A stretch of DNA of 56,972 bases from a virus (taxonomy: Duplodnaviria > Caudoviricetes). The notes under the pieces were generated by a model that saw nothing but the letters and a program-made list of their open reading frames with translations, was not told the origin of the DNA and searched no databases. The stretch is taken from positions 1-56,972 of IMG/VR virus record IMGVR_UViG_3300043654_000022; one strand, written 5' to 3'. Of the stretch, positions 2,142 through 49,808 are shown piece after piece. Position numbers and translations under genes: made by a program. Within the stretch, counting starts at the first letter, position 1. Each line of letters starts with the position of its first letter.

Positions 2142-2220
2142 CGTGGAATGGGAGAGTCTGGCCGTCTCCGCTCGTTTTGGAAACGAGAGAACCTTGGTTC
2201 AAATCCAAGTTCCGCGACCA
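2142..2220 (+). tRNA. tRNA-Pro(TGG)
   Basis: ctcgt-ttTGGaa-acgag, T-loop ttcaaat, CCA. Confidence 0.9.
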
Positions 2221-2290
2221 TTTTTGTGGCGTAACAGACCACGATTGAAGTAAATCGTTCTCGGACGTAAACCGAGTGGTTGAGTTCAGT

Positions 2291-2366
2291 TCCACTCTGG
2301 TCCAACAGGTAGGACACTTCACTGTTAATGAAGAGGGTCTCCGTTCGAATCGGAGGGGTGGAGCCA
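2291..2366 (+). tRNA. tRNA-Asn(GTT)
   Basis: cttca-ctGTTaa-tgaag, G73 CCA. Confidence 0.92.
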
Positions 2367-2375
2367 ATTTTTTAC

Positions 2376-2449
2376 GGGGTCGTCGTCCAGTGACAGGACG
2401 CTCGACTGTCTATCGAAGAACGGGGGTTTGATTCCCCTCGGCCCCGCCA
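2376..2449 (+). tRNA. tRNA-Asp(GTC)
   Basis: tcga-ctGTCta-tcga, G73 CCA. Confidence 0.9.
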
Positions 2450-2726
2450 TGATGTTGCAACAGTGCCGCAATGCTCCGGGTCGCCCCCGCGAAGCAGACT
2501 CGCTAGCTGGTTAAGGGTCAGAAGGCACACGGGACTTGAAAAATCCCCAAGGCGCGTCCGGGAACCGCGCGTTGATAAATAGTTCCTCGGATTTGTGTCC
2601 AGCACGGAGATATTATTGTGCTGGCAAAGCCAGTAGTGATTCACGTTTGGTAGCCGAGATAAATTGGTAACTCGGTGCCGACTGCCGAAAGGCCCGAACC
2701 GTGCCTCACGCCAATTGATTTTCTGT

Positions 2727-2811
2727 AGCCTCTTGGCGGAACGCATACGCTCTGGTTTTAGAAACCAGCGCCCGTAAGGGATTGAGAGTTCAAGTCTCTC
2801 AGAGGCTACCA
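2727..2811 (+). tRNA. tRNA-Leu(TAG)
   Basis: ctggt-ttTAGaa-accag, long V-arm, A73 CCA. Confidence 0.9.
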
Positions 2812-2957
2812 AGTTTTGGCTGAGTATGCTTCGCCGTGAAAACGGAATGAAGACCAACCAGCGGCTACGAGCCGCAAAGTTTGTACGTACATCGGTAGGG
2901 GGTGCCGCAATCATCCCCAGCCACTCTATTGCAGAGGGTGAAATAAAGAATTTCAGA

Positions 2958-3033
2958 CTCCTCGATTCTCGGACGGACGGGTACCGCACTTCTAAGGCGG
3001 ATTTAGAGAGTTCGAATCTCTCCGAGGGGTCCA
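2958..3033 (+). tRNA. tRNA-Arg(TCT)
   Basis: loop ctTCTaa, T-loop ttcgaat, CCA. Confidence 0.85.
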
Positions 3034-3178
3034 GTTTTTTCGTGGGTAGGTGTGACAACCGGGAGGCGAAACGAAAAAGCGGGAATTAGGATATGGTGTC
3101 TTCCCCCGCCGCGATGCAATCGTGAATCCGGTCTAGTCAACTGGAGTGCTTTGCACTGTGAGGACGCCACGATTTTTA

Positions 3179-3253
3179 GGGCTGCTCGTATATCGTATAA
3201 TGCACAGCGCTACGAACGCTGGGAGCGGGGTTAGACTCCCCGGTGGCCCTCCA
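3179..3253 (+). tRNA. tRNA-Arg(ACG)
   Basis: cagcg-ctACGaa-cgctg, CCA; T-loop ttagact. Confidence 0.88.
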
Positions 3254-3260
3254 TTTTAAT

Positions 3261-3347
3261 CGCCTGCTGGCGGAATTGGCAGACGCAGCGGATTCAAAAC
3301 CCGCCGCCCGAGAGGGCGTTAGAGTTCGAATCTCTAGTTGGCGACCA
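3261..3347 (+). tRNA. tRNA-Leu(CAA)
   Basis: loop ttCAAaa, long V-arm, A73 CCA. Confidence 0.9.
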
Positions 3348-3379
3348 TTTTGAAATCCATTGACTACGGTCAGGTGATT

Positions 3380-3799
3380 ATGAACAGCAACCAAAGAAAA
3401 GATGCAACGCTAGGAATGCCTCACGGCACCGCGAGTGGCAGACTTCGGAAGATGATTTTGTTCAATCTTTTGAAAAAGCACGGCGAGAATTCCTGCCATG
3501 CTTGCGGAAAGCCGATTGATTCTGTAGATGCTTTGAGTATTGAGCACAAGAAACCGTGGGAAGGGGTATCGGCTGACTTGTTTTGGGATTTAGAAAACAT
3601 AGCGTTTTCGCATCTTCGATGTAATACTCCGAACCGCCCTTACAACAATGGTGGGTGGAACAAGAAACCAGCCCCAGAAGGGATGGCGTGGTGCATCGGA
3701 CATCAAGTATTCGAACCAGTCGAAAACTTTTGGAAGAACGCAAGTTTTTGGAATGGTCTTGAGAAGTACTGCAAGACGACCAAGATTCGAAATAGATAA
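3380..3799 (+). CDS. HNH endonuclease (free-standing, inside tRNA array)
   Basis: CHACG...SIEHKKPW...NIAFSHLRCN. Confidence 0.85.
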   Translation: MNSNQRKDATLGMPHGTASGRLRKMILFNLLKKHGENSCHACGKPIDSVDALSIEHKKPWEGVSADLFWDLENIAFSHLRCNTPNRPYNNGGWNKKPAPEGMAWCIGHQVFEPVENFWKNASFWNGLEKYCKTTKIRNR

Positions 3800-3806
3800 A
3801 GATTTT

Positions 3807-3890
3807 GCGCGTGTGGCGGAAAGGCATACGCAGGGCACTTAAAACGCCCCGCCGAAAGGCATGAGGGTCCGACTCCCTCGGCGCGCACCA
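3807..3890 (+). tRNA. tRNA-Leu(TAA)
   Basis: loop ctTAAaa, V-arm gccgaaaggc, CCA. Confidence 0.9.
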
Positions 3891-3926
3891 AGTGACAAAG
3901 GCCCGACGCGAGTCGGGTCGGAGATT

Positions 3927-4000
3927 GCACGAATCGGCAAGTGGTAAGCTAGCTGTCTGCAAAACAGCCATCGCGTGTTCGATTCACGCTTCGTGCTCCA
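3927..4000 (+). tRNA. tRNA-Cys(GCA)
   Basis: gctgt-ctGCAaa-acagc, U73 CCA. Confidence 0.92.
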
Positions 4001-4080
4001 AGTTCGTCGGCCCTATTCACGAAGACAAGCCGAATCGTTTCTTCTCCGCGTTGGTAACGAAAACTCAAAGCGGAATATTT

Positions 4081-4355
4081 TGGTAGCGTAGACGAACGCG
4101 GTGAGAAACCCGAGAGGGCTATAAGCCGAGGAAAGTCAGGCCATATCTCAACGCCGCTTTGTGGAAGTTGCAAGACGCGTAAGCGTACGAGTAAGGACCC
4201 ATAACCGAAAGGTTCATTCGAGTGGGGTAACTCTCAGCGGATGTAAGTTCGAATAGGACCGGAGCGCTCGTTGAGCACAATGATGGTCGGGTTGAACGCA
4301 CAGAGGAATGTTCGTCACCGCGCAAGCGGAACAGAAGCCTGCTTATTCGTTGCCA
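4081..4355 (+). ncRNA. rnpB: RNase P RNA, compact (~275 nt)
   Basis: P1 tggtagcg/cgttgcca; CR-I GAGGAAAGTCAGGC; CR-IV AGAGGAATGTTCGTC; CR-V AACAGAAGCCTGCTTA; P6 tcaac/gttga; P7 ccgct/agcgg. Confidence 0.93.
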
Positions 4356-4398
4356 CTAAATTTTAGTTTTGTACGTACGCACGATAAGCGAGTTCAGT

Positions 4399-4473
4399 CG
4401 GTTGCTAGTGTCAAAGTAGCACAGCAGGCTCTTAACCTGACGAGTGAAAGTGCAAGTCTTTCGCGACCGACCA
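4399..4473 (+). tRNA. tRNA-Lys(CTT)
   Basis: cagg-ctCTTaa-cctg, CCA; T-loop tgcaagt. Confidence 0.85.
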
Positions 4474-4588
4474 ATTTTCGAAAGAGACGTGCTCCGCGCA
4501 CGAGAGCGAAATAATGCGGCGGCGGGCGAATGACGCCCTCAGTCTACCAAGACGTTACGAAGAGGTGGAATGCCTCAAAAGTTTCTGT

Positions 4589-4664
4589 ACCCGATTATCA
4601 AACTGGTCGTATGAACCTCTCCTACAAAGAGGCTGGCAGAGTTCGATTCTCTGATTGGGTACCA
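4589..4664 (+). tRNA. tRNA-Val(TAC)
   Basis: cctct-ccTACaa-agagg (C33), A73 CCA. Confidence 0.85.
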
Positions 4665-4671
4665 ATTTCTG

Positions 4672-4760
4672 TGGGGACGCAGTTCGCGGTAGAGTGAACG
4701 CTTGCGACATCCGGTACCGGACTCGTAAGATGGCGGGGGTGAATGACCCTCGGGTTCCCA
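4672..4760 (+). ncRNA. tRNA-like RNA with an extended, closed anticodon arm
   Basis: four-arm cloverleaf; anticodon loop replaced by tccggtaccgga palindrome; ends ccca. Confidence 0.5.
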
Positions 4761-4766
4761 GATTTT

Positions 4767-4857
4767 TGTCGGTAGCATCAGTATGCAGCGCGGTTTTATA
4801 AACCGCGAAGCTCCAGATGAGAGCGCCGAGAGTGGGCAGCACACTCACCGACAACCA
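4767..4857 (+). tRNA. atypical tRNA-Ile(TAT) with long variable arm
   Basis: tgtcggt/accgaca acceptor, gcggt-ttTATaa-accgc, 4-nt D-loop, T-loop ggcagca, A73 CCA. Confidence 0.75.
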
Positions 4858-4859
4858 AC

Positions 4860-4933
4860 GGCCCTGTCGTCTAAAGGCAGGACTTCCGCTTCTCAAGCGG
4901 AAAACGGCGGGTCAGTACCGCCCGGGGCTACCA
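4860..4933 (+). tRNA. tRNA-Glu(CTC)
   Basis: tccgc-ttCTCaa-gcgga, CCA; T-loop gtcagta. Confidence 0.88.
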
Positions 4934-4972
4934 AGTTTGAAAATGTAAGAGGAGCAGTTTTAAGATACTCTC

Positions 4973-5263
4973 ATGGCAAACAACTATAACTCGAATCCGA
5001 TTTTCATCGACAGCATAATGGCGGCAACCGCGAAGAATAGCGGCGCGACAACGACCAACTCGTTTCATATTAAAGAAATCGTGTGGAGCACACCCGGAAG
5101 CACCGCGGCAGATTCCGCCGTAATTCAAGACGGCTTGGGTAATGAAATTTTCGAACAACAATCGGGCCGAGCAGCACCTGAACTATTTAATCCACCGATG
5201 GTTATAGATGATTTCAAAGTAACAACTTTGGCAGATGGACACATTCTGATTTATTTGGTATAA
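4973..5263 (+). CDS. hypothetical beta-rich protein
   Basis: clean ORF between tRNAs with GAGGAG upstream. Confidence 0.7.
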   Translation: MANNYNSNPIFIDSIMAATAKNSGATTTNSFHIKEIVWSTPGSTAADSAVIQDGLGNEIFEQQSGRAAPELFNPPMVIDDFKVTTLADGHILIYLV

Positions 5264-5282
5264 AGCATAAGTTCAAAGATTC

Positions 5283-5376
5283 TCTCGTGTCGCTGTAAAC
5301 TATCGGCCTGTAGGTGAGCATAGGCGTCCGCTCGATAAGCGGAAGGTAGCTGGTTCGAATCCAGCGACCAGAACCA
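5283..5376 (+). tRNA. tRNA-Ile(GAT), aberrant 5' half
   Basis: tccgc-tcGATaa-gcgga, canonical T-arm, ACCA; imperfect acceptor with extra sequence before the D-arm. Confidence 0.6.
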
Positions 5377-5458
5377 ATTTCGAAGCGACACGGGTCCCGC
5401 GTACGCGGTACGTCGTCAACGGTGGGGAAGCCCGATGGGCCACCGAAAAATTTTTAAT

Positions 5459-5532
5459 CGCAGCGGAGAATTGGTATTCAAGTCTGTCTCATAAGCAGAC
5501 CTCCGAAGGTTCGTTTCCTTCCCCTGCGACCA
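5459..5532 (+). tRNA. tRNA-Met/Ile2(CAT)
   Basis: tctgt-ctCATaa-gcaga, A73 CCA. Confidence 0.85.
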
Positions 5533-5546
5533 ATTTAGGAGACCCG

Positions 5547-5885
5547 ATGATTGAACAAGCATGGACTAGTTTACAAGTCGCAGGTCTCGCGGCATTGACG
5601 TTGACCACGGTTCTTACGGCTCTTGCAGACGGCTACACGACGATGATTGGCATAGAGCACGGAGACGCGGAAAAGAATCCGCTTATCAAGTGGCTCTTCT
5701 CCAAACTAGGCCAGCAACTCACGCTGTTCCTCACGACGGGCGCGGTTCTCTTCGGCGGCGCGATTATCGCAGCGCACACGATGGCGGGTGGCTTCTTGTA
5801 CTTCGGCGCTATGACAGTTAGTCGCGGTATCCGCGCGCTGTTGAACTATCGCTTGTTGAAGAAGCAGAAGATTAGTTTGAAGTAA
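5547..5885 (+). CDS. membrane protein, DUF5658-like
   Basis: three hydrophobic segments; D..TT..G...G..E.NP motif; AGGAG SD. Confidence 0.7.
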   Translation: MIEQAWTSLQVAGLAALTLTTVLTALADGYTTMIGIEHGDAEKNPLIKWLFSKLGQQLTLFLTTGAVLFGGAIIAAHTMAGGFLYFGAMTVSRGIRALLNYRLLKKQKISLK

Positions 5886-5988
5886 GATTTTGAGTAGTGC
5901 CACACGACCCGCCTGACGTTTATGGTAGTCGTCCAGATGCTTTGTTCGGATAAAGGTAGTCCGTCCGTGACGCCGCTCCAGTTTCTAT

Positions 5989-6064
5989 GCCTCGTTAGCT
6001 CAGAAGCAGAGAACTCGGTTCTAACCGAGGGGTGGTACGGGTCGCGTCGTACACGGGGCTTCCA
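5989..6064 (+). tRNA. tRNA-like gene with 6-nt anticodon loop (ttctaa), identity unclear
   Basis: gcctcgt/acggggc acceptor, tagctcag D-arm, ctcgg/ccgag stem, 8-nt T-loop, CCA. Confidence 0.6.
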
Positions 6065-6071
6065 GTTTTGA

Positions 6072-6145
6072 GCCGATGTAGTTTAGTGACAGAACTTTTC
6101 TTTGGTAAAGAAAAAGCCTAAGTTTGATTCTTAGCGTTGGCTCCA
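6072..6145 (+). tRNA. tRNA-Thr(GGT)
   Basis: tttct-ttGGTaa-agaaa, CCA. Confidence 0.9.
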
Positions 6146-6154
6146 GTTTTCAAA

Positions 6155-6229
6155 GCCGAACTAGCTCAATGGTAGAGCGGCGCTTTTGTAAAGCGACGGT
6201 TCGCGGTTCAAGTCCACGGTCCGGCTCCA
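6155..6229 (+). tRNA. tRNA-Thr(TGT)
   Basis: canonical D-arm, loop ttTGTaa, CCA. Confidence 0.92.
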
Positions 6230-6247
6230 GTTTTGTAGCTACAATTT

Positions 6248-6296
6248 GACGGGGTGCCTTGAACACCCCGTCTCACTCTTTCAAGGAGGGTGAAAA
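6248..6296 (+). promoter_or_regulatory. kissing-hairpin leader covering the HNH gene SD
   Basis: loop ccttgaa complementary to loop ttcaagg, which overlaps AGGAGG. Confidence 0.65.
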
Positions 6297-6866
6297 ATGA
6301 AATATAAATGTGTTCGGTGTGGTGTTGAGTTTTTCAGAAAGCACGGTGCTAGAAAGTATTGCTCCGTCGCCTGTGCCCAGAGAAGACTAGAAGGCGAGTG
6401 CGCCGATTGTAAGAAAGTCATTTCAGCCAATAAGGTCCGATGTGCAGATTGTCGAAACAAGATACGAGATGAGTGGCCCGAAAAACAAAAGATTCAGAGA
6501 AGAGAAAACGCGTATAGAATAAGTCGAGAGCCGCGCGGTCGATTTCACAGGCTTAAGAAAAATTTGAAAGACGAGAAAGTCCCCTCATCAGACCCTATCT
6601 GGAATTTTAATTTTTATGCTGCTTTGATACAAGATGAGCAGTGTCATTACTGTTTCGGTCCTCTGAGTCCGACAGGACACGCGTTAGACAGAGTAATAAA
6701 CAGTTTGGGACACACGGCGGGTAATGTTGTTCCTTGCTGTTAGCCCTGCAACACTATTAAAGGAAAGTACTGGGAGTATGAGCACATGATGTTGCTTGCC
6801 CCCAAACTTAGAGGTCTAAGAATTTCAAAGCTGGAAGCGCCCGATGGCAGGGCACCTCTTTCGTAA
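6297..6866 (+). pseudogene. Zn-finger HNH endonuclease interrupted by in-frame TAG at 6741
   Basis: CHYC...LDRV...NVVPCC*PCNTIKG; frame stays open to TAA 6864-6866. Confidence 0.75.
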
Positions 6867-6904
6867 AGAGTTCTCCAAAGGTTCAATTCCTTTTTCTAGC
6901 TCCA
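6830..6904 (+). tRNA. tRNA-Thr(CGT)
   Basis: ctct-ttCGTaa-agag, CCA. Confidence 0.88.
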
Positions 6905-6914
6905 ATTTTTCTGA

Positions 6915-6988
6915 GCGGGACTGGCGTATTGGCAGCGCGACAGTCTTCCAAACTGTAGGAAAGGGTTCAACTCCCTTGTTCCGCTCCA
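6915..6988 (+). tRNA. tRNA-Gly(TCC)
   Basis: acagt-ctTCCaa-actgt, U73 CCA. Confidence 0.92.
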
Positions 6989-18078: not shown

Positions 18079-20155
18079 ATGTCAGGACCTAACCCATCGG
18101 GAAATAACGTAGCAAACGTACTAACGGCGCAAGCCATCATCAAAAAGGTGACACTCTAAAACAACTTGACTGAAAGAGTCAAATGTGCTAGAATAGACAA
18201 TCTCTTCTTATTGACTTGAAACCTGAAACGGCAACAAGGCGGAAGCCGAAAGGCACCGTGAGAGACTAAGCGAAGAGACGCCGAAAGGCGATGCGATAGT
18301 CCGTTCTTCCGAGAAAACAATCGGAAGAAGCAAGCAGAAATGACTTGCTCTCTGGAATACACCAGAGTAACAAAACAGCTTCGACAAGGAACTTATCCCT
18401 ATCGCGTAAGCGAGCAAGTTCCGAAGGAATGACATGAAGGTACGAAACATCGTTGGACAGACTTTTGGGAGACTGACCGCCCAGAGTGCCGCAGGCAGTA
18501 ACAGCAGGGGGCGAGCACTGTGGTTGTGTCGTTGTTCTTGTGGCAAAGAGAAAATAGTTCTCGGAGACCACTTAACACGAAAGGATGCCAAAGGCGTAAG
18601 GTCTTGCGGATGTTTACAGCAAGAGAATCGTACAAAGCATGGAGCATTTTCTTCAAATTCAGATATAAAATACCACGTTCGTTATTCTCTTCTGGCAGGC
18701 TTGAAGGACAGAAGCCGCAGAAGGGGCTACGAATCAGACTTAGAAATCTCCGACATACCCGAGATTCCTGAGCTTTGTCCCGTTCTTGGGACTCGTTTGA
18801 GTTTGCACCGAAACAGCCACGGCAAAGGAAAAGGCAGAGGCAGAAATAGACAAGACGCCTCTCCATCAATAGACAGATTTAATTCAAATCTTCCGTACCT
18901 TAAAAAGTACAAAGATAATCTGTGTATTATTTCGTGGCGAGCAAACAAGCTAAAGTCAGACGCGTCTCTTGTCGAGATGAAGAAAGTGGTGGAATATCTT
19001 GAAAATTGGGGCACTCAGCAGAGTGAAAAATCTTCTCTAATTGACTCGAAACCCAACCAAATCGGGGGCAACGAGGCGGAAGCGAATAGCGCCGTGAGAG
19101 ACTAATCGAGAAGACGCCGAGAGGCGATGTAATAGTCCGGTCTAACAAATGAAAATTGTTAGAGGCTGGCGGAAACGACCAGTCCCGTGATGGGCGTCAC
19201 GGTAACATATACGAACCTAAAGGGTAATACAAACGCCTTCGTTGGAGCAGCAGAGCGTCGTGTTCAAGGCCTTCACATGGGCGTGAACCGCACCTTCTTC
19301 CAGTACAACACTTTGTCGGGTGACACTGTTCAGAACAGTGACGGCACTGTGGGTTCGCCGGAAACCATCAGCCAAGTCAGCGCGCCAGCGCAGATTGGTG
19401 AGTGGAACAACTATGCGAACTTCTCATCGTTTGCAATCGCAGCCGCAATCGATGAGCTCGTTGGCAACAGCGCAGTTGAACTCGGCTACCAAGCTGGGCA
19501 GTCAATCAGCGAGTTGTACAGCGCAGTTGCTGACAGCGCTTCGGGCGTAGACAGCAACGTGAACCAGTCAAGCCTATTGGCCTCGCCGTTTATACTTGAT
19601 TTGGCAACCATCCGTACTTTGAAGCAGCAGCTTGTTTCGAAGAACGTGCTTCCATGCAAGCGTGGAATGTATTTGGGCGCAATCAGCCCGAACGTGTTGG
19701 GCGACATCTACAACGCAACGACTGTGAACAACAGCATCGCTGACTTGTGGAAGTACGAAAACATGGAGAAGTTTGATGCGACCGCGGGCGCTGACCAGAA
19801 CAAGGTCATCGTGTTGCCGGGCACCAACATCGGCTTCATGCAGACCCCGTTCGTGACCACGACGGCTAACTACCAAGCAAGCGGAAAAATCGGATACCGT
19901 ACCTACGTATTCGGTAACTACGCAATGATTGGTGTTTGGTTGCAGGTTCCGGGCGACACCGACCTCGATGAGGGAGACTGGAAGACGATTGACTGCCGTG
20001 TCGTAACAGACGCGCCAGCATCATCGTTTGACCCGGTTTCGACAATCGGGGGATGGTGCAGCTACAAATTTCATCAAACCGTTACGTTGCCACCAGCAAC
20101 GGGCTTGAACTCGCAGCGTATCCGCTACATAGATTCGGTTCCGGCCATTCAGTAA
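18079..20155 (+). CDS. major capsid protein, spliced: join(18079-18140,18379-18400,19214-20155), 341 aa
   Basis: exons join in frame to MSGPNPSGNNVANVLTAQAIIFDKELIPNLKGNTNAFVG...; position after scaffold. Confidence 0.85.
18141..18378 (+). mobile_element. group I intron 1 (238 nt, no ORF)
   Basis: 5' splice site after U paired to IGS ggtga; core ccgtgagagactaa...gatagtcc; ends in G. Confidence 0.88.
18166..18194 (+). promoter_or_regulatory. sigma70 promoter inside intron 1
   Basis: TTGACT-17-TAGAAT with extended TG. Confidence 0.65.
18401..19213 (+). mobile_element. group I intron 2 (813 nt) with endonuclease in the P1 loop
   Basis: IGS tggggc near 19006 pairs exon ccct; core ccgtgagagactaa...aatagtcc; ends in G. 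Confidence 0.88.
18434..19105 (+). CDS. intron-encoded HNH-like homing endonuclease
   Basis: GQTFGRLT..WLCRCSCG..SCGC N-domain; CPVLG..SPSIDR..N..IISWRAN..K. Confidence 0.85.
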   Translation: MKVRNIVGQTFGRLTAQSAAGSNSRGRALWLCRCSCGKEKIVLGDHLTRKDAKGVRSCGCLQQENRTKHGAFSSNSDIKYHVRYSLLAGLKDRSRRRGYESDLEISDIPEIPELCPVLGTRLSLHRNSHGKGKGRGRNRQDASPSIDRFNSNLPYLKKYKDNLCIISWRANKLKSDASLVEMKKVVEYLENWGTQQSEKSSLIDSKPNQIGGNEAEANSAVRD

Positions 20156-42925: not shown

Positions 42926-43302
42926 GTGGTCACTTCCGGGTCTCGATAACCCATCCGGGTACCGATTGCGCGGCACTTCTTCTTCACTAGTTGATACGCC
43001 TCGTCAAACGAATAGTAGCCGTGCCAAAACGCGACCGGGATGCGAAACTTTCCCGGGGTGTGGATGACGAAATACCCCCGGTTGTATCCCAGCTTCACCA
43101 GCGCCACATAAATCTCGTCTCGACCGCCATTGTACATGGACTCGACCATCCCCCATGCGGCATCCATGCCCTTGTCGTCTTTCCACTCGTGGATGACTTC
43201 GAATTGTCCATTGGCCCAATCGGCGAGCAAGCCTCCGTACTCAGAGCCGCGAAAAGCCTTCCACGAGGCGATGAGTCTACGAATTAGGAGAGGTAATTTC
43301 AC
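42922..43302 (-). CDS. hypothetical protein
   Basis: GTG after AGGAG. Confidence 0.65.
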   Translation of the reverse strand: MKLPLLIRRLIASWKAFRGSEYGGLLADWANGQFEVIHEWKDDKGMDAAWGMVESMYNGGRDEIYVALVKLGYNRGYFVIHTPGKFRIPVAFWHGYYSFDEAYQLVKKKCRAIGTRMGYRDPEVTT

Positions 43303-43303
43303 G

Positions 43304-43567
43304 TCACTCTCCTAACCTTTCCGAGAGGCCGCGCCGTGTTTCCTCGGCTTGCGGTTCCGTCACTGCTGCCAGCGTGGACAAGAACGACTTGAGCTCAATG
43401 CATTCTCTCACGTCCGCTTTGAACTGAGTATTGTAATCTTCCAACCGTTGGGTCAGAGCTTCCAACCGCTGGGTCAGAGATTGAATCTGGCGCATCCTGT
43501 AATTGTTATTGGCGTCTAGCTTCTGGATTCGTTCTTCCACCAGCTTCTTCAAAATCGGTGTCAGCAT
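43304..43567 (-). CDS. coiled-coil protein with 21-bp duplication (43438-43479)
   Basis: LTQRLE twice; AGGAG SD. Confidence 0.65.
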   Translation of the reverse strand: MLTPILKKLVEERIQKLDANNNYRMRQIQSLTQRLEALTQRLEDYNTQFKADVRECIELKSFLSTLAAVTEPQAEETRRGLSERLGE

Positions 43568-43581
43568 TATCGTCTTTTCTC

Positions 43582-44100
43582 CTAAAGGCTAAATCCAAGT
43601 CCGGCCTTCTCAGACCAGTCCTTGCGTGCGGAAATTTCGGAGCCCACCTTGGTGTAGCGGGCGGTGATGTCTTTGGCCGCGTGGCCTGCCCAAAACTTCA
43701 CCAGCGTCTCCGGGACGTTGGCGAGTTGCAGGTGAGTGATGCGAAAGCGACGAAGGGAGTGGAAGCCTTCCAGCCCCAAGGCTTTAAACTTGCGGCGGTA
43801 CTGGCGCTCCGATTGGGGGAACATCGGGCCTTCTAGATTCGCGAATTGCGAACGCAGAAGGGCGTTGATTTCCGGGGCGAGGTCAACAATACGCTTCCCG
43901 GCCCGGGTCTTCGGGCCCGTCTGGAAAACACCCTCTACAAGGGTCCCAGAGACCGTAATCGACCCCTGTATGGGGTCCCAGACGTTGCCTTGCCCGATAG
44001 CCAGCGCCTCCCCAATTCTGAGACCAGAGCCTGCTAAGAGGACGATAAGTAGCCTCAATCGGCTATTAGGCGCTCTGTGAGACGACTTTTCAAGAATCAT
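43582..44100 (-). CDS. tyrosine integrase, catalytic half
   Basis: GLRIGE, HSLRR, AGH, TARY intact; own GGAGG SD before ATG 44100. Confidence 0.88.
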   Translation of the reverse strand: MILEKSSHRAPNSRLRLLIVLLAGSGLRIGEALAIGQGNVWDPIQGSITVSGTLVEGVFQTGPKTRAGKRIVDLAPEINALLRSQFANLEGPMFPQSERQYRRKFKALGLEGFHSLRRFRITHLQLANVPETLVKFWAGHAAKDITARYTKVGSEISARKDWSEKAGLGFSL

Positions 44101-44506
44101 GGGTCTTTTCCTCCACCGAGGGTAATTCTGGCTTATAAACGATTCTAGGGCCATTTACGACAATTGCTAGAATATCGCTTTTCATTCGCTCTTTGGATGT
44201 GGTAGGTTCCCCTTTCTTGTTTAAATATCCGGTGCGTACTTCGACGGTGAAAAGAAGTGAACCTCTCTTGACCACTAAATCCGAGGAACCCCAAGGACTA
44301 ACATTTCTATAAACTTCAAATCCTTTATGAAGCAAATCAGCAGAGACAAGTAACTCGCTTTCTGCCCCCAAATTTGACCCTTTTGCTTTAGAATCCGAGC
44401 GAACGTTTTCCCAATGCCTTTTTGACCCACAGCGCGAAGAACAAAATTTCGCTGTTTCCTGCTTATTAGGGTCAAGAGTTTTTCCGCATCTCCAACATTT
44501 TCTCAT
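44090..44506 (-). CDS. PD-(D/E)XK homing-type endonuclease with Zn finger
   Basis: CWRC..FCSSRC; G..SE..V..DL...G.EV...DLVV...VEVRT. Confidence 0.8.
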   Translation of the reverse strand: MRKCWRCGKTLDPNKQETAKFCSSRCGSKRHWENVRSDSKAKGSNLGAESELLVSADLLHKGFEVYRNVSPWGSSDLVVKRGSLLFTVEVRTGYLNKKGEPTTSKERMKSDILAIVVNGPRIVYKPELPSVEEKTHDS

Positions 44507-44901
44507 TGCAATAGCCTCAAAATTTCTGTTAGCCGCTCTCCTGTAATTATGGGAGTCTTCTGGGAGTCCGGGTCGATGCCGGGGGCCTTGATATAGTCTG
44601 AGTTCCAAACGACCGGGTAAAGGGGGTTGCCGCGGCCATCCACGGCGCTCTTAACCACCTGCTTGACAAGGGTGACCGCCAAGCCTATCGTGGCAGGGCT
44701 AAGGCGAGCCTCGGCAAGATGGCTCACCAGCGACTTGGCGGTCTTGTTGTCGACTTCCTCTAATTCCAACCCGCCGATGGCGGGGTTGATTCGGTTGTCG
44801 AGGATGGAGCGGTAGACGTGCAGCGTGTTAGGACGTGCCACGCTGGCGATGTCGGCTAAGTACGCCTCGGCTTGTTTTGAGAACGTCATTACGCTATCCA
44901 T
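44503..44901 (-). CDS. tyrosine integrase, N-terminal core-binding half
   Basis: TF...AE.YL.......NT...Y...L...I.P.IG...L..V, LSPATI, LKQ-like VKQVVK.AV. Confidence 0.8.
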   Translation of the reverse strand: MDSVMTFSKQAEAYLADIASVARPNTLHVYRSILDNRINPAIGGLELEEVDNKTAKSLVSHLAEARLSPATIGLAVTLVKQVVKSAVDGRGNPLYPVVWNSDYIKAPGIDPDSQKTPIITGERLTEILRLLQ

Positions 44902-44907
44902 GTTACG

Positions 44908-44935
44908 AGTATACACGATTCCGGGTTTTTGTCAA
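44908..44935 (-). promoter_or_regulatory. sigma70 promoter of the integrase (probably leaderless)
   Basis: TTGACA-16-TATACT; ATG 7 nt after the -10. Confidence 0.65.
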
Positions 44936-44969
44936 GCACTATTTTAGGGAATTATATACATGACTCCCT

Positions 44970-45071
44970 TCAACCTTTCCGCTTCCGTTTTCGGGCACGT
45001 TTCTTCCCTTTCTTGGGTTTGTACTGGAGAACCTTGTCCACCAGTTTCTCTAGCTCTTTCGGCGGCTTCAT
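44970..45071 (-). CDS. 33-aa basic peptide coupled to the transposase
   Basis: ATGA overlap; MKPPKELEKLVDKVLQYKPKKGKKRARKRKRKG. Confidence 0.55.
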   Translation of the reverse strand: MKPPKELEKLVDKVLQYKPKKGKKRARKRKRKG

Positions 45072-45982
45072 GCGGTCAACCTCTTGTAAGTGATTCGCTT
45101 TCTCGCGGTAGCGTCTACGAGACTGGCGAGGCGGTCTAAGGTATGGCGTTCAACACGTCCAGCATTCAAACGGAACGTAAATTCGTTGACGTAGCGGCCA
45201 AGATGCTTGCGGCTGGCACGGTGATAGACGCCATGCATCTCGCGCTTCATCACAGCCCAAACGGACTCAATCCCGTTCGTGCTCACGTCTCCGCGAACGT
45301 ACACGCCGTCTCTGTGGTTCACGGATTCATGCTTGTAGCCGTTGGTAAGTCCGATATAGCTACGGTGTTCGTCAGTCAGGAGCCGAGAGCCGGGAAGTAC
45401 GTTCTCCGCAATCGTGCCTTGAATCGTCGCGCTGTCGTTTCGGTCAATCGGCATCGCAGTGGTGCGACCGCCGCGTTCCCGCATTCCAATTACAGCGACC
45501 TTGCCGACCGCTCCGCGTCCTTCGTTGAGTTTCTTATTCTTGTGTTTGTTGCGCTCCAAGCCGCCAAAGAAGGTTTCGTCTACCTCAATCGTGCCTTGCA
45601 GAACATCGGTGTCGTTCCCGCAAGCCTCGCGGAGCCGCTGCAAGACGAACCATGCGGACTTCTGAGTAATCCCAATCTGTTTAGCCAGTTGCAAGGAAGA
45701 GACGCCCTTACGGGCCGTCAGGAGCATGTACATGGCGTAAATCCATTTGTGCAAAGGAACGTGCGACCGCTCGAATATCGTGCCAGTGCGAACGGTAAAG
45801 TCCAACTTGCAGGCGTTGCACCGATAGAAACCCTCTTTGCGTGCCGTGATTCGCTCGCCAGAGTTGCACGTTGGACACTTCACGCCATCTTTCCAGAGAC
45901 GGGATTCGAGGTACTTGCGAGCCGTTTCCACGTCAGGGAACAACTTGAAGAGTTGGAAGGTGCTGATAGTAGAACGGCTCAT
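45068..45982 (-). CDS. IS1595-family DDE transposase
   Basis: Zn ribbon CPTC/CNAC, EVDET, TDE..SY, NH, TNGIESVW, Y..EF.FR.N. Confidence 0.95.
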   Translation of the reverse strand: MSRSTISTFQLFKLFPDVETARKYLESRLWKDGVKCPTCNSGERITARKEGFYRCNACKLDFTVRTGTIFERSHVPLHKWIYAMYMLLTARKGVSSLQLAKQIGITQKSAWFVLQRLREACGNDTDVLQGTIEVDETFFGGLERNKHKNKKLNEGRGAVGKVAVIGMRERGGRTTAMPIDRNDSATIQGTIAENVLPGSRLLTDEHRSYIGLTNGYKHESVNHRDGVYVRGDVSTNGIESVWAVMKREMHGVYHRASRKHLGRYVNEFTFRLNAGRVERHTLDRLASLVDATARKRITYKRLTA

Positions 45983-48326: not shown

Positions 48327-48490
48327 TGTCTGTCATCCTTGTACGGCTTTGCAACCGTCTCAAAAACTTCCGCAAGATATCGCACCTTTTCACCTGTCGC
48401 CAGTATGGTGATGTCGTAGAAGCCACCACCCTCTGACTTGGTGGCCTCCACGACAATCCCGGCGACGAGGTACTGGTTACTTTTTTCCAT
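48323..48490 (-). CDS. small protein (55 aa, not in ORF track)
   Basis: fills the gap exactly; ATGA coupling. Confidence 0.55.
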   Translation of the reverse strand: MEKSNQYLVAGIVVEATKSEGGGFYDITILATGEKVRYLAEVFETVAKPYKDDRQ

Positions 48491-49808
48491 CGCTCAACCC
48501 CTTAACACAAACGAGTTGCTTAATTGCGAGCACTGGCTCAACAAGGTCACTTTGACTCGCCATAACGTCATCAATCGGCTTGTAAGCCCCCGGCGTCTCG
48601 TCAAGCACGCTGAGGGTCTTGTCGCAGTAGACGCCAAACGTTGCCGCTTGGTGGTCGGCTACTGTGAACTCTTTCAAAGCCTGCGTTCGGCTCATCGCGC
48701 GACCCGCGCCGTGGGAGCAAGAGTTGAATGAATCCTTAGAGCCGAGTCCGCGGGCGATGTACGTCTTAGCGCCCATCGAACCGGGAATGATTACCCAATT
48801 ACCTTTCGATGCGTCCACCGCCCCCTTGCGGGTCAAGATGGTGTCGCCCAAGATACTCGCGTAGTTGTGGTGCATGTGAATCACCGATGGCGCATTCAAA
48901 TCCATGTACCCGTCTTGTGTTGCGCCGATTGCCGTCAATACGCGCTGCATCATAATCTCGCGATTAATCCACGCGAACTCTTGCGCGAGTTTGACCGCGC
49001 TGAGATAGTCGTTGTATTCTGGTGTGTCCTTCGGCAGGTAGCCGAGGTCCTTGTTCGGAAGCTGAACTCCCCACTTCTTGCATAATTCCCCAGCTAATTT
49101 GGTGAAGTATGTACCGATGCGATTACCAAATCCGCGCGAACCTGAGTGAATCACAACCCAGAGGTTCGAATCAGGGTTGTCGATTTCAGCGCAAACTTCA
49201 ATGAAGTGATTTCCGGTGCCGAGCGTACCCAAGTGGCGCTCCGCGTTCTTCGAAAGTGCGCCCGGATGACGGGTGAATATGGATTCTGGATGCTCCCGAG
49301 AACCAAGCAGAGAATGCACGCCCGTTACTCGGCTATCAAAATTTTCACGCCAAATCTCTTGAATGTCCGATGGCACTTCGCCCCATGCGCCGCGGTCACC
49401 CAGCCCGCCGTCGTTGGTGCGCCCGTGCGGCACCGCAGTTGAGATATAAGAGAAAAATTTAGCTTCCACGCTTGCGTGACCGCCTGATTGGTACTCGTCA
49501 TCAAGTTCATCAAGACGCAGGTTGGTTCGAACTGCCATCATGCCGCAGCCGATGTCCACACCGACCGCTGCGGGCATCACAGCGCCCACCGTGGGGATAA
49601 CGGACCCAATAGTTGCGCCCATGCCCCAATGCGTGTCCGGCATAGCAGCCACGTACGGCTTCACGAACGGCATTGAGGCGACCTCGTCAAGCTGCTTCAA
49701 AGCCGCGTCTTCAATCGTGACGTGCTTGTTCCACAACTTGATTAGTTTGTTGCCCACCGCTCGGGTGTTGTAGTTCTTTTGAACCATCTTTTCCTTTGGC
49801 AAATTCAT
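48477..49808 (-). CDS. rtcB: RNA-splicing/repair ligase RtcB
   Basis: MPD.H.G.G..IG, GVDIGCG, GTLG.GNHF.E, HSGSRG, HHNY, RKGA, IIPGSMG, SHGAGR, DE.PGAYK. Confidence 0.96.
   Translation of the reverse strand: MNLPKEKMVQKNYNTRAVGNKLIKLWNKHVTIEDAALKQLDEVASMPFVKPYVAAMPDTHWGMGATIGSVIPTVGAVMPAAVGVDIGCGMMAVRTNLRLDELDDEYQSGGHASVEAKFFSYISTAVPHGRTNDGGLGDRGAWGEVPSDIQEIWRENFDSRVTGVHSLLGSREHPESIFTRHPGALSKNAERHLGTLGTGNHFIEVCAEIDNPDSNLWVVIHSGSRGFGNRIGTYFTKLAGELCKKWGVQLPNKDLGYLPKDTPEYNDYLSAVKLAQEFAWINREIMMQRVLTAIGATQDGYMDLNAPSVIHMHHNYASILGDTILTRKGAVDASKGNWVIIPGSMGAKTYIARGLGSKDSFNSCSHGAGRAMSRTQALKEFTVADHQAATFGVYCDKTLSVLDETPGAYKPIDDVMASQSDLVEPVLAIKQLVCVKGLSDGKK

Follow-up and report, generated by a model that had tools for sequence, protein, structure and literature searches.

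The sequence analysed here, referred to as the window, is the whole of IMG/VR record IMGVR_UViG_3300043654_000022, a viral contig of 56,972 bases that is estimated to be ~54% complete. It encodes a large terminase, a portal protein, tail fibres, an endolysin, an RtcB ligase and 16 tRNAs. The terminase, portal and tail fibre genes identify its source as a tailed phage, which is about 100 kb in size, uncultured and from soil. On the minus strand of the window, three overlapping cistrons stand in for a single tyrosine integrase gene: an N-terminal half (N-half), a nuclease gene and a C-terminal half (C-half). The elements of this split locus, each present once in the record apart from a repeated 9-mer, are listed below. 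The term cassette denotes the nuclease gene together with its two flanking arms, and L003 (contig G001, 82.7 kb) is a related record with an unsplit integrase.

44503..44901, minus strand: integrase N-half cistron, 132 amino acids (aa) plus TGA; Pfam PF14659 at E 1.9e-6, above the cut-off
44090..44506, minus strand: nuclease gene, 138 aa plus TGA; ATG at 44506-44504, stop at 44092-44090
43582..44100, minus strand: integrase C-half cistron, 172 aa plus TAG (43584-43582); Pfam PF00589 at E 6.7e-7, above the cut-off
44503..44546, minus strand: low-GC left arm of the cassette, GC 42%; homology to L003/G001 stops near 44546
44040..44114, minus strand: low-GC right arm of the cassette, GC 46%; homology to L003 resumes near 44039 or 44025
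44026..44546, minus strand: whole non-homologous block, lying between the pieces 43591-44025 and 44547-44955 that blastn aligns to G001
44908..44935, minus strand: promoter-like site, TTGACA-16 nt-TATACT, with 11 of 12 consensus matches; a consensus match only
44512-44520 (upstream copy) and 44050..44058 (downstream copy), minus strand: the 9-mer TTGAGGCTA, with 2 matches in the 57-kb window and 0.24 expected

An earlier reading of these letters, which we call the original prediction, held that a free-standing PD-(D/E)XK nuclease splits a tyrosine integrase into two separately translatable halves, and the minus-strand open reading frames (ORFs), Shine-Dalgarno sites, Pfam matches and a structural model of the nuclease bear this out. 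The N-half comprises a SAM-like core-binding domain, a linker and catalytic-domain helix 1. A tblastn match with the unsplit integrase P0008 covers its residues 1-128, and translation likely starts at ATG 44901 rather than GTG 44916, with homologue alignments beginning at 44901. As had been described, the N-half ends ...LTEILRLLQ, and its TGA (44505-44503) overlaps the nuclease ATG (44506-44504) as ATGA. The left arm encodes the final ~14 residues of the N-half (ITGERLTEILRLLQ), the stop codon and the nuclease Shine-Dalgarno site, a GAGG (44518-44515) placed 8 nt upstream of the nuclease ATG. The right arm encodes the start signals of the C-half and its first ~20 residues (MILEKSSHRAPNSRLRLLIV): a GGAGG (44114-44110) within the codons for the C-terminal VEEK of the nuclease is followed 9 nt downstream by the ATG (44100-44098; MILEKSS), which itself lies 8 nt before the nuclease stop (ATGATTCTTGA). 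The C-half is the catalytic domain from its second helix onward, and its match to PF00589 spans profile positions 20-168 of 172, that is, it starts only at position 20. The R-HxxR-H-Y set that the original prediction had called intact is present in full (R28, H114, R117, H140 and Y149), together with K64. The integrase domains are carried on two chains, not on one polypeptide, the first closed by the TGA at 44505-44503 and the second opened by a new ATG at 44100.

Transcription signals were examined across the same interval. TTGACA, the first hexamer of the promoter-like site, also occurs at the equivalent place upstream of the unsplit gene in L003 (L003 2573-2610). In the window the second hexamer ends 6 nt before ATG 44901, and an mRNA transcribed from this site would thus be nearly leaderless. 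No promoter-like or terminator-like site was found on the minus strand between the three cistrons.

Alignment with uninterrupted homologues, which the original prediction had proposed as a check, supports an interrupted gene. One continuous gene of 288-300 aa occupies the syntenic place in all seven distinct related records whose DNA was examined, namely L003 (the same as L022), five further viral records (L023-L027) and one genome-collection contig (L028). The continuous integrase of L003 has 292 aa and shares 74% identity with the N-half and 80% with the C-half. By blastn, the non-homologous block measures 521 nt in the window and 80 nt in unsplit G001, a net difference of 441 nt. A 652-nt contig from an independent soil run (X4) bridges the site, joining 44558 to 43989 with 127 nt replacing 568, and the N-half portion of this contig differs from the window at 20 of 333 positions. 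The unsplit form is dominant among the 328 proteins retrieved from the protein database at E<=1e-10, and the best 120 of the 328 are mostly 280-320 aa long. A scan of genome contigs with the N-half alignment yielded one unsplit locus only. L028 is a 57.7-kb contig from an archaeal genome-collection record, in which an unsplit integrase is accompanied by neighbour genes as in the window phage; it probably derives from a phage and was binned with an archaeal assembly.

The same comparison defines what the cassette adds and what it replaces. In 85 of 87 unsplit rows the distance from the QKxP motif to the GLRxxE motif is exactly 38 residues, and the residues between are highly variable. This result comes from 122 rows (family P0008-P0127), 35 of which had no match to the search expression, and the two exceptions are mis-anchored matches. 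The corresponding distance in the window is 19 + 31 = 50 residues. The cassette therefore adds 12, of which 4 form a C-terminal tail on the N-half and 8 an N-terminal head on the C-half. Residues encoded by the cassette arms replace those of unsplit proteins (TASQTLQNALETTNGSIQALVAI in P0008); judged by these alignments, the cassette is more than an insertion, with short arms that replace part of the integrase itself.

The block is also foreign in composition. The nuclease ORF has a GC content of 42.5%, its 43-nt upstream and 61-nt downstream flanks have 42% and 46%, respectively, and the homologous parts of the two halves have 58-60%. The GC fraction at third codon positions is 0.37 in the nuclease versus 0.76 and 0.70 in the halves. 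At 43% GC, the whole non-homologous block is the lowest-GC stretch of the contig, and the nuclease is its lowest-GC segment of 414 nt, with 0.18% of such segments equally low.

The nuclease consists of an N-terminal four-cysteine zinc ribbon (CxxC...CxxxC) and a PD-(D/E)XK domain. Its own match to Pfam PDDEXK_5 (PF11645) is weak, with an E value of 0.005 and 17.3 bits versus a cut-off of 26.1 bits; among 70 sampled members of its family, 64 match PDDEXK_5 at E<=0.01 (best 9e-9) and 4 match Pfam Hjc. The family is large, with 3948 cluster representatives at E<=0.001 in an exhaustive profile search, mostly of 130-200 aa, and a word-based search identified further relatives, five at 72-87% identity and one (P0007) at 40%. 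The four cysteines are near-invariant or invariant in the family, E51 and D76 are invariant, and E89 is found in 68 of the 70 sampled members, in which E89-V90 is followed at position 91 by R, K or T. An AlphaFold2 (AF2) model of the nuclease has a predicted local distance difference test score (pLDDT) of 91.4. By model and conservation, it has an alpha-beta-beta-beta-alpha-beta PD-(D/E)XK core in which the acidic and basic catalytic residues are present. The best structural match is I-Ssp6803I (Foldseek E 1.8e-4). VIA-align likewise places I-Ssp6803I (2OST) first, at Z 9.9 over 96 residues and a root-mean-square deviation of 3.6, with archaeal Hjc next at Z 8.2, and a sequence-profile search of the Protein Data Bank (PDB) ranks 2OST first, weakly (E 0.12). 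We regard the protein as a putative homing endonuclease that is I-Ssp6803I/Hjc-like.

I-Ssp6803I is the PD-(D/E)XK homing endonuclease of a group I intron in the tRNA-fMet gene of Synechocystis (PDB 2OST; PMC3384342); here and below, published systems are described from excerpts of the papers cited. The window nuclease resembles it in being a small, single-domain enzyme with an E...D...E-x-K/R arrangement, and I-Ssp6803I is its best match by structure and by PDB profile. The two are only 18% identical, however, and the window protein has the extra zinc ribbon at its N-terminus. Unlike I-Ssp6803I, which is encoded by an intron in a tRNA gene, it is free-standing inside a protein-coding gene. 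Scans of viral contigs with the nuclease gave either no relatives or distant relatives only, and among GenBank phages four records gave only short partial matches, none covering 80%. The distant relatives (33-50% identity), which occupy 18 metagenomic or viral loci among the matches listed, are small free-standing ORFs amid unrelated phage genes, their neighbours being known from ORF lists only.

Judged by their protein sequences, split and unsplit alleles of the integrase coexist. Other N-halves that end at the same place as that of the window are P0129, P0133 and P0134/P0290, with the tails RLLQVGQ, RLLGVA and ARLQYGS, and the C-halves that start at the same place are P0111, P0106, P0109 and perhaps P0126. 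P0130 and P0132 carry a second tail type (LLRNEPLETIKPI and LLNGTPLEDIKTI), and P0135 a third, RLLKEAKQEE..., such that at least three tail types (...RLLQ, ...LLRNEPLETIKPI and ...RLLKEAKQEE...) end at one loop. A simple frameshift was considered as the origin of the second tail type and rejected, given that the protein sequence of the tails is conserved from P0130 to P0132. As a separate observation, the proteins with different, longer tails, P0130 and P0132 (with P0106 and P0109) and P0135 (LLRNEPLETIKPI, RLLKEAKQEEMILTG...), lie on contigs whose lengths match none of those of the nuclease homologues.

The split alleles are scattered on trees of both integrase domains. On the N-domain tree, from which the cassette arms, eight full-length rows lacking the anchoring motif and every row shorter than 279 aa were omitted, 7 split rows among 59 unsplit ones require 7 changes, and well-supported branches force at least 2. 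On the C-domain tree, with three rows lacking the motif omitted, 5 split rows among 61 unsplit ones require 5 changes, all of which are forced by well-supported branches. Each split C-half shown has an unsplit allele, 84-89% identical, as its nearest relative. Split P0290 (135 aa) and unsplit P0291 (300 aa) share one 90% cluster and are near-identical up to QK(V/A)PI and unrelated beyond, so that the left edge of the cassette coincides to the codon with that in the window. P0291 itself had no match among GenBank phages. Nuclease identity disagrees with integrase N-half identity (84% versus 63% for P0003, and 77% versus 83% for P0005), the nuclease-integrase pairings having been assigned by the equal size and source of their contigs. 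The nuclease is absent from all five related phage records searched, four of them 97-100% complete, with three weak matches of zinc-ribbon length only, and its presence or absence at one precise site among otherwise homologous alleles is directly seen. With split alleles scattered on both trees, a cluster shared by P0290 and P0291 and five records without the nuclease, the insert behaves as a mobile homing cassette, and on this sequence evidence we consider it very probable that it is a mobile element of the homing type.

The best explanation of these observations would be a site-specific mobile cassette that was copied into a tyrosine-integrase gene, with a gene for a zinc-ribbon, I-Ssp6803I-type PD-(D/E)XK nuclease as its cargo. 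On arrival the cassette would have replaced ~80-127 nt, encoding the first catalytic-domain helix and the loop that follows, with its own low-GC versions. It would also have supplied a stop codon, the nuclease gene with its GAGG, and the GGAGG and ATG of the C-half. The locus would now operate as a translationally coupled three-cistron operon behind one promoter, in the order N-half, nuclease, C-half. As for its spread, we infer from the pattern of split and unsplit alleles that the nuclease would cut unsplit alleles during co-infection or a phage-prophage encounter, and that repair would copy the cassette into the cut gene. Crossovers would lie in the flanking, conserved QKxPI and LLAxxGLRIGE codons, and the variable linker between them would be co-converted by gene conversion.

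We then considered whether the divided integrase is intact. Neither half contains a stop or frameshift. The ratio of nonsynonymous to synonymous substitution rates (dN/dS) against L003, which the original prediction had suggested determining for both halves, was 0.21 in the case of the N-half and 0.125 in that of the C-half, and an unsplit-versus-unsplit control gave 0.19. The six catalytic residues (R-K-H-R-H-Y) are kept in five of five split C-halves, and the corresponding columns, R28, K64, H114, R117, H140 and Y149, are invariant in 59-60 of 60 aligned family members. Terminal branches leading to split alleles have lengths of 0.03-0.13, shorter than the median of 0.23. The C-terminal EEK codons of the nuclease, which carry the Shine-Dalgarno site of the C-half, are common to close nuclease homologues, and P0007, the relative at 40% identity, ends before them.

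The position of the break was located on a structural model of the unsplit integrase P0008 (AF2, pLDDT 90.5), so that the fold is that of an unsplit relative and not of two chains. This model matches Tn1549 Int, lambda Int, XerA and Cre. In PDB searches the integrase profile aligns to Tn1549 Int at E 4.4e-9, unlike a phmmer search with a single unsplit integrase, which gave no match. The break falls in a loop, a two-residue turn that connects helix 121-130 to helix 133-145 (helices 1 and 2 of the catalytic domain), and precedes the catalytic R148 of P0008 by 20 residues. Given this position, the N-chain would carry the core-binding domain, the linker and catalytic helix 1, and the C-chain would carry all six catalytic residues. 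By the model, the break appears to be the kind of cut that fragment complementation tolerates.

The original prediction likened this locus to mobE, which in the nrdA gene of Aeromonas phage Aeh1 reportedly formed the case of 'genes in pieces' attributed to Friedrich et al. in 2007. The likeness is well chosen. In each, as far as the excerpted accounts go, the gene of a phage enzyme is divided by a free-standing homing-endonuclease gene, and neither intron nor intein is involved. In each, too, the endonuclease gene overlaps the downstream half and is foreign in composition, the insertion created short new C- and N-terminal tails, and the enzyme is interrupted close to its active site, between neighbouring secondary-structure elements. 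The two also differ. The host gene is a tyrosine integrase here and a ribonucleotide reductase there, and the nuclease is of the zinc-ribbon PD-(D/E)XK type rather than HNH. In the integrase, unlike NrdA, all catalytic residues are on one chain, and unsplit alleles are found alongside several split ones that have at least three tail types among them. The NrdA of Aeh1 that mobE divides cannot assemble without the tails that the insertion gave it, and as two chains it is active (Crona et al. 2011, PMC3045599); a comparable activity of the divided integrase is putative.

A two-chain recombinase would be the best reading of the intact halves. With a break of a tolerable kind, and with tails that are essential in the mobE-split NrdA, we put the chances that the two chains form a working integrase at even or slightly better, and those of a dead gene well below that. 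If the chains do work together, they would reassemble without a covalent link, catalytic-domain helix 1 on the N-chain docking onto the C-chain, and the cassette-derived tails, of 4 and 8 extra residues, may aid this assembly as the tails of NrdA do. What is established here is the anatomy of the locus, the existence of empty sites, the foreign composition of the insert, its scattered distribution and the intact state of both halves. For the statement as a whole, a mobile homing cassette in the integrase that includes functional reassembly of the two chains, we would give a rough probability of 0.55.

Several observations weigh against this statement. Pairwise dN/dS averages in the time before insertion, so that a recent split could hide relaxed selection. 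The region around the break may tolerate change poorly, given the spacing of exactly 38 residues in 85 of 87 unsplit rows versus 50 in the window. For two of the other split alleles, on contigs of 7002 and 2715 nt, the placement of a nuclease between the halves is deduced from equal size and source, and three close nuclease homologues, on contigs of 5430, 1873 and 17574 nt, are known at the protein level. P0126 might represent a truncated gene call instead of a split half. Finally, Hjc scores near I-Ssp6803I and the distant relatives of the nuclease lie amid unrelated genes, and the wider family consequently need not consist of homing enzymes.

A rival reading accepts the homing cassette but takes the integrase to be broken, the halves being inactive together and the phage living without integration or losing the gene. 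A linker that is both interrupted and 12 residues longer than in nearly all unsplit proteins may not be tolerated. Split alleles are rare, with 7 N-halves against more than 100 full-length proteins, and each stands beside an unsplit relative, which fits short-lived, recently invaded alleles. Engineered split Cre, moreover, is weakly active without helper domains, according to excerpts of one study (PMC8455372). On the other hand, a dead gene sits poorly with halves that are free of frameshifts and stops, with the retention of six catalytic residues in all five C-halves, with dN/dS values of 0.125-0.21 and with terminal branches that are not lengthened. The cassette also provides a well-spaced GGAGG and ATG for the C-half, on EEK codons that close nuclease homologues have in common, and two alleles share a conserved second tail type (LLRNEPLETIKPI, LLNGTPLEDIKTI). 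We regard a broken integrase as unlikely.

Alternatively, the nuclease might not be selfish at all, and would instead be an Hjc-like junction-resolving or accessory enzyme, a fixed partner of the integrase that acts on recombination intermediates. Tyrosine recombinases act via Holliday junctions, Hjc is the second-best structural match (Z 8.2 versus 9.9) and is matched in Pfam by 4 of 70 family members, and the three cistrons are translationally coupled. A fixed partner, however, should not be missing from all five related phages with unsplit integrases, scattered on both trees and foreign in composition, and a partner gene need not sit within the coding sequence. This makes an accessory role very unlikely.

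The last alternative is that the interruption is removed during expression, by an intron, by an intein or split intein, or by a ribosomal hop between the copies of TTGAGGCTA, to give one normal integrase chain. The halves are in the same reading frame, the 9-mers are 462 nt (154 codons) apart, and phage metagenomes hold fractured genes with a free-standing endonuclease between split inteins (PMC2677866). A search of positions 43300-45200 against Rfam 15 found no intron family at E<=10, with three noise-level hits only and none at E<=1. Of the 441 net inserted nt, 414 are taken up by the nuclease ORF, and the 27 nt outside it leave no room for an intron core; group I and group II introns are ruled out by the lack of an Rfam family and of space beside the ORF. 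Inteins and split inteins are ruled out as well: the frame is closed by stops, and no further Pfam domain is present. With only 4 and 8 aa, the tails are far shorter than split-intein halves, which rules out the fractured-gene arrangement. On both counts the original prediction, which saw neither intron nor intein, was correct.

Its suggestion of ribosomal bypassing fared less well. The gap to be crossed is 405-462 nt, and known bypassing, in gene 60 of T4, spans about 50 nt (bioRxiv 10.1101/2022.08.31.505936, in excerpt). A hop would, in addition, remove residues whose counterparts in unsplit homologues belong to the strictly 38-residue linker. The dipeptide IL does occur at both junctions as noted, but its Leu codons differ (TTG and CTT). 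TTGAGGCTA does recur on both sides of the nuclease. Two 120-nt junction neighbourhoods share a 9-mer in 4.3% of 20,000 shuffles, and a shared 9-mer is found in 111 (7.4%) of 1508 pairs of segments with the same spacing in other parts of the contig; the repeat is therefore not beyond chance. It is not kept at the protein level in other split alleles, and its upstream copy contains the GAGG site of the nuclease. We rejected bypassing on the gap, the differing IL codons and the chance level of the 9-mer, and, on the last of these grounds, a target-site duplication or transposon-like origin of TTGAGGCTA. Removal of the interruption by any of these routes is, in our estimation, extremely improbable.

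Three further systems, again as described in excerpts of the papers cited, resemble parts of the arrangement. The fractured genes reported in 2009 (PMC2677866) have split inteins and a Vsr-like endonuclease; the integrase locus, with tails of 4 and 8 residues, has no intein halves and its endonuclease is I-Ssp6803I-like. Lacking intein halves, the integrase chains must be reassembled non-covalently if they are reassembled. Engineered split Cre (PMC8455372, PMC3973285) is likewise a tyrosine recombinase made as two chains that need reassembly. Cre, in contrast, was split by man, at another place and usually with added dimerising modules, whereas the split described here is natural, lies after helix 1 of the catalytic domain and has short tails only. 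The SSV-type 'suicidal' integrases of archaeal viruses (PMC7253208) are encoded by a gene that is also found in two pieces. The SSV gene, however, has the att site within it, is split by integration and is restored on excision; in the phage studied here a nuclease gene lies between the pieces within the viral genome.

Other features of the window concern mobile genes and tRNAs. Directly upstream of the split integrase is a transposase gene of the IS1595/ISXO2 type (45068-45982, minus strand; PF12762, E 1.6e-40, plus a zinc ribbon), which is absent from all five related phage records. With this gene beside the nuclease cassette, the integrase neighbourhood has acquired two different mobile elements. 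An HNH endonuclease gene (18434-19102, plus strand) lies in a low-GC island among structural genes. Its product is 100% identical (223/223) to the G001 counterpart and the surrounding DNA is only 76-87% identical; from this comparison it looks like a second homing-type gene, recently exchanged. An array of 16 tRNA genes occupies positions 2142-6988 (plus strand), and positions 48480-49808 encode an RtcB-type tRNA ligase.

Essentially a single case has been documented in depth in which a gene divided by a free-standing homing endonuclease remains functional as two chains, and a 2023 survey of phage homing endonucleases (PMC10448857) still describes the division of a gene into two functional peptides as having occurred 'in at least one instance'. 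A full-text literature search, with most subscription journals outside its coverage, found no published tyrosine integrase split by a homing endonuclease. The locus described here would be a second, independent kind of endonuclease-split gene, in which both the host enzyme, a tyrosine recombinase, and the type of nuclease are different. With natural split and unsplit alleles side by side, homing, co-conversion tracts and the evolution of the tails become directly testable. More tentatively, and at somewhat less than even odds, the integrase family may be a natural set of self-assembling two-chain recombinases, in which one surface loop, after helix 1 of the catalytic domain, has been broken repeatedly by mobile cassettes, tails from each cassette serve as glue, the split enzyme functions and expression of the nuclease is tied to that of the integrase. 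The locus points to a natural permissive split site in the recombinase fold, which engineers now split by trial and error. If the more tentative reading is true, nature would already have mapped, for tyrosine recombinases, both a permissive split site and minimal interaction tags.

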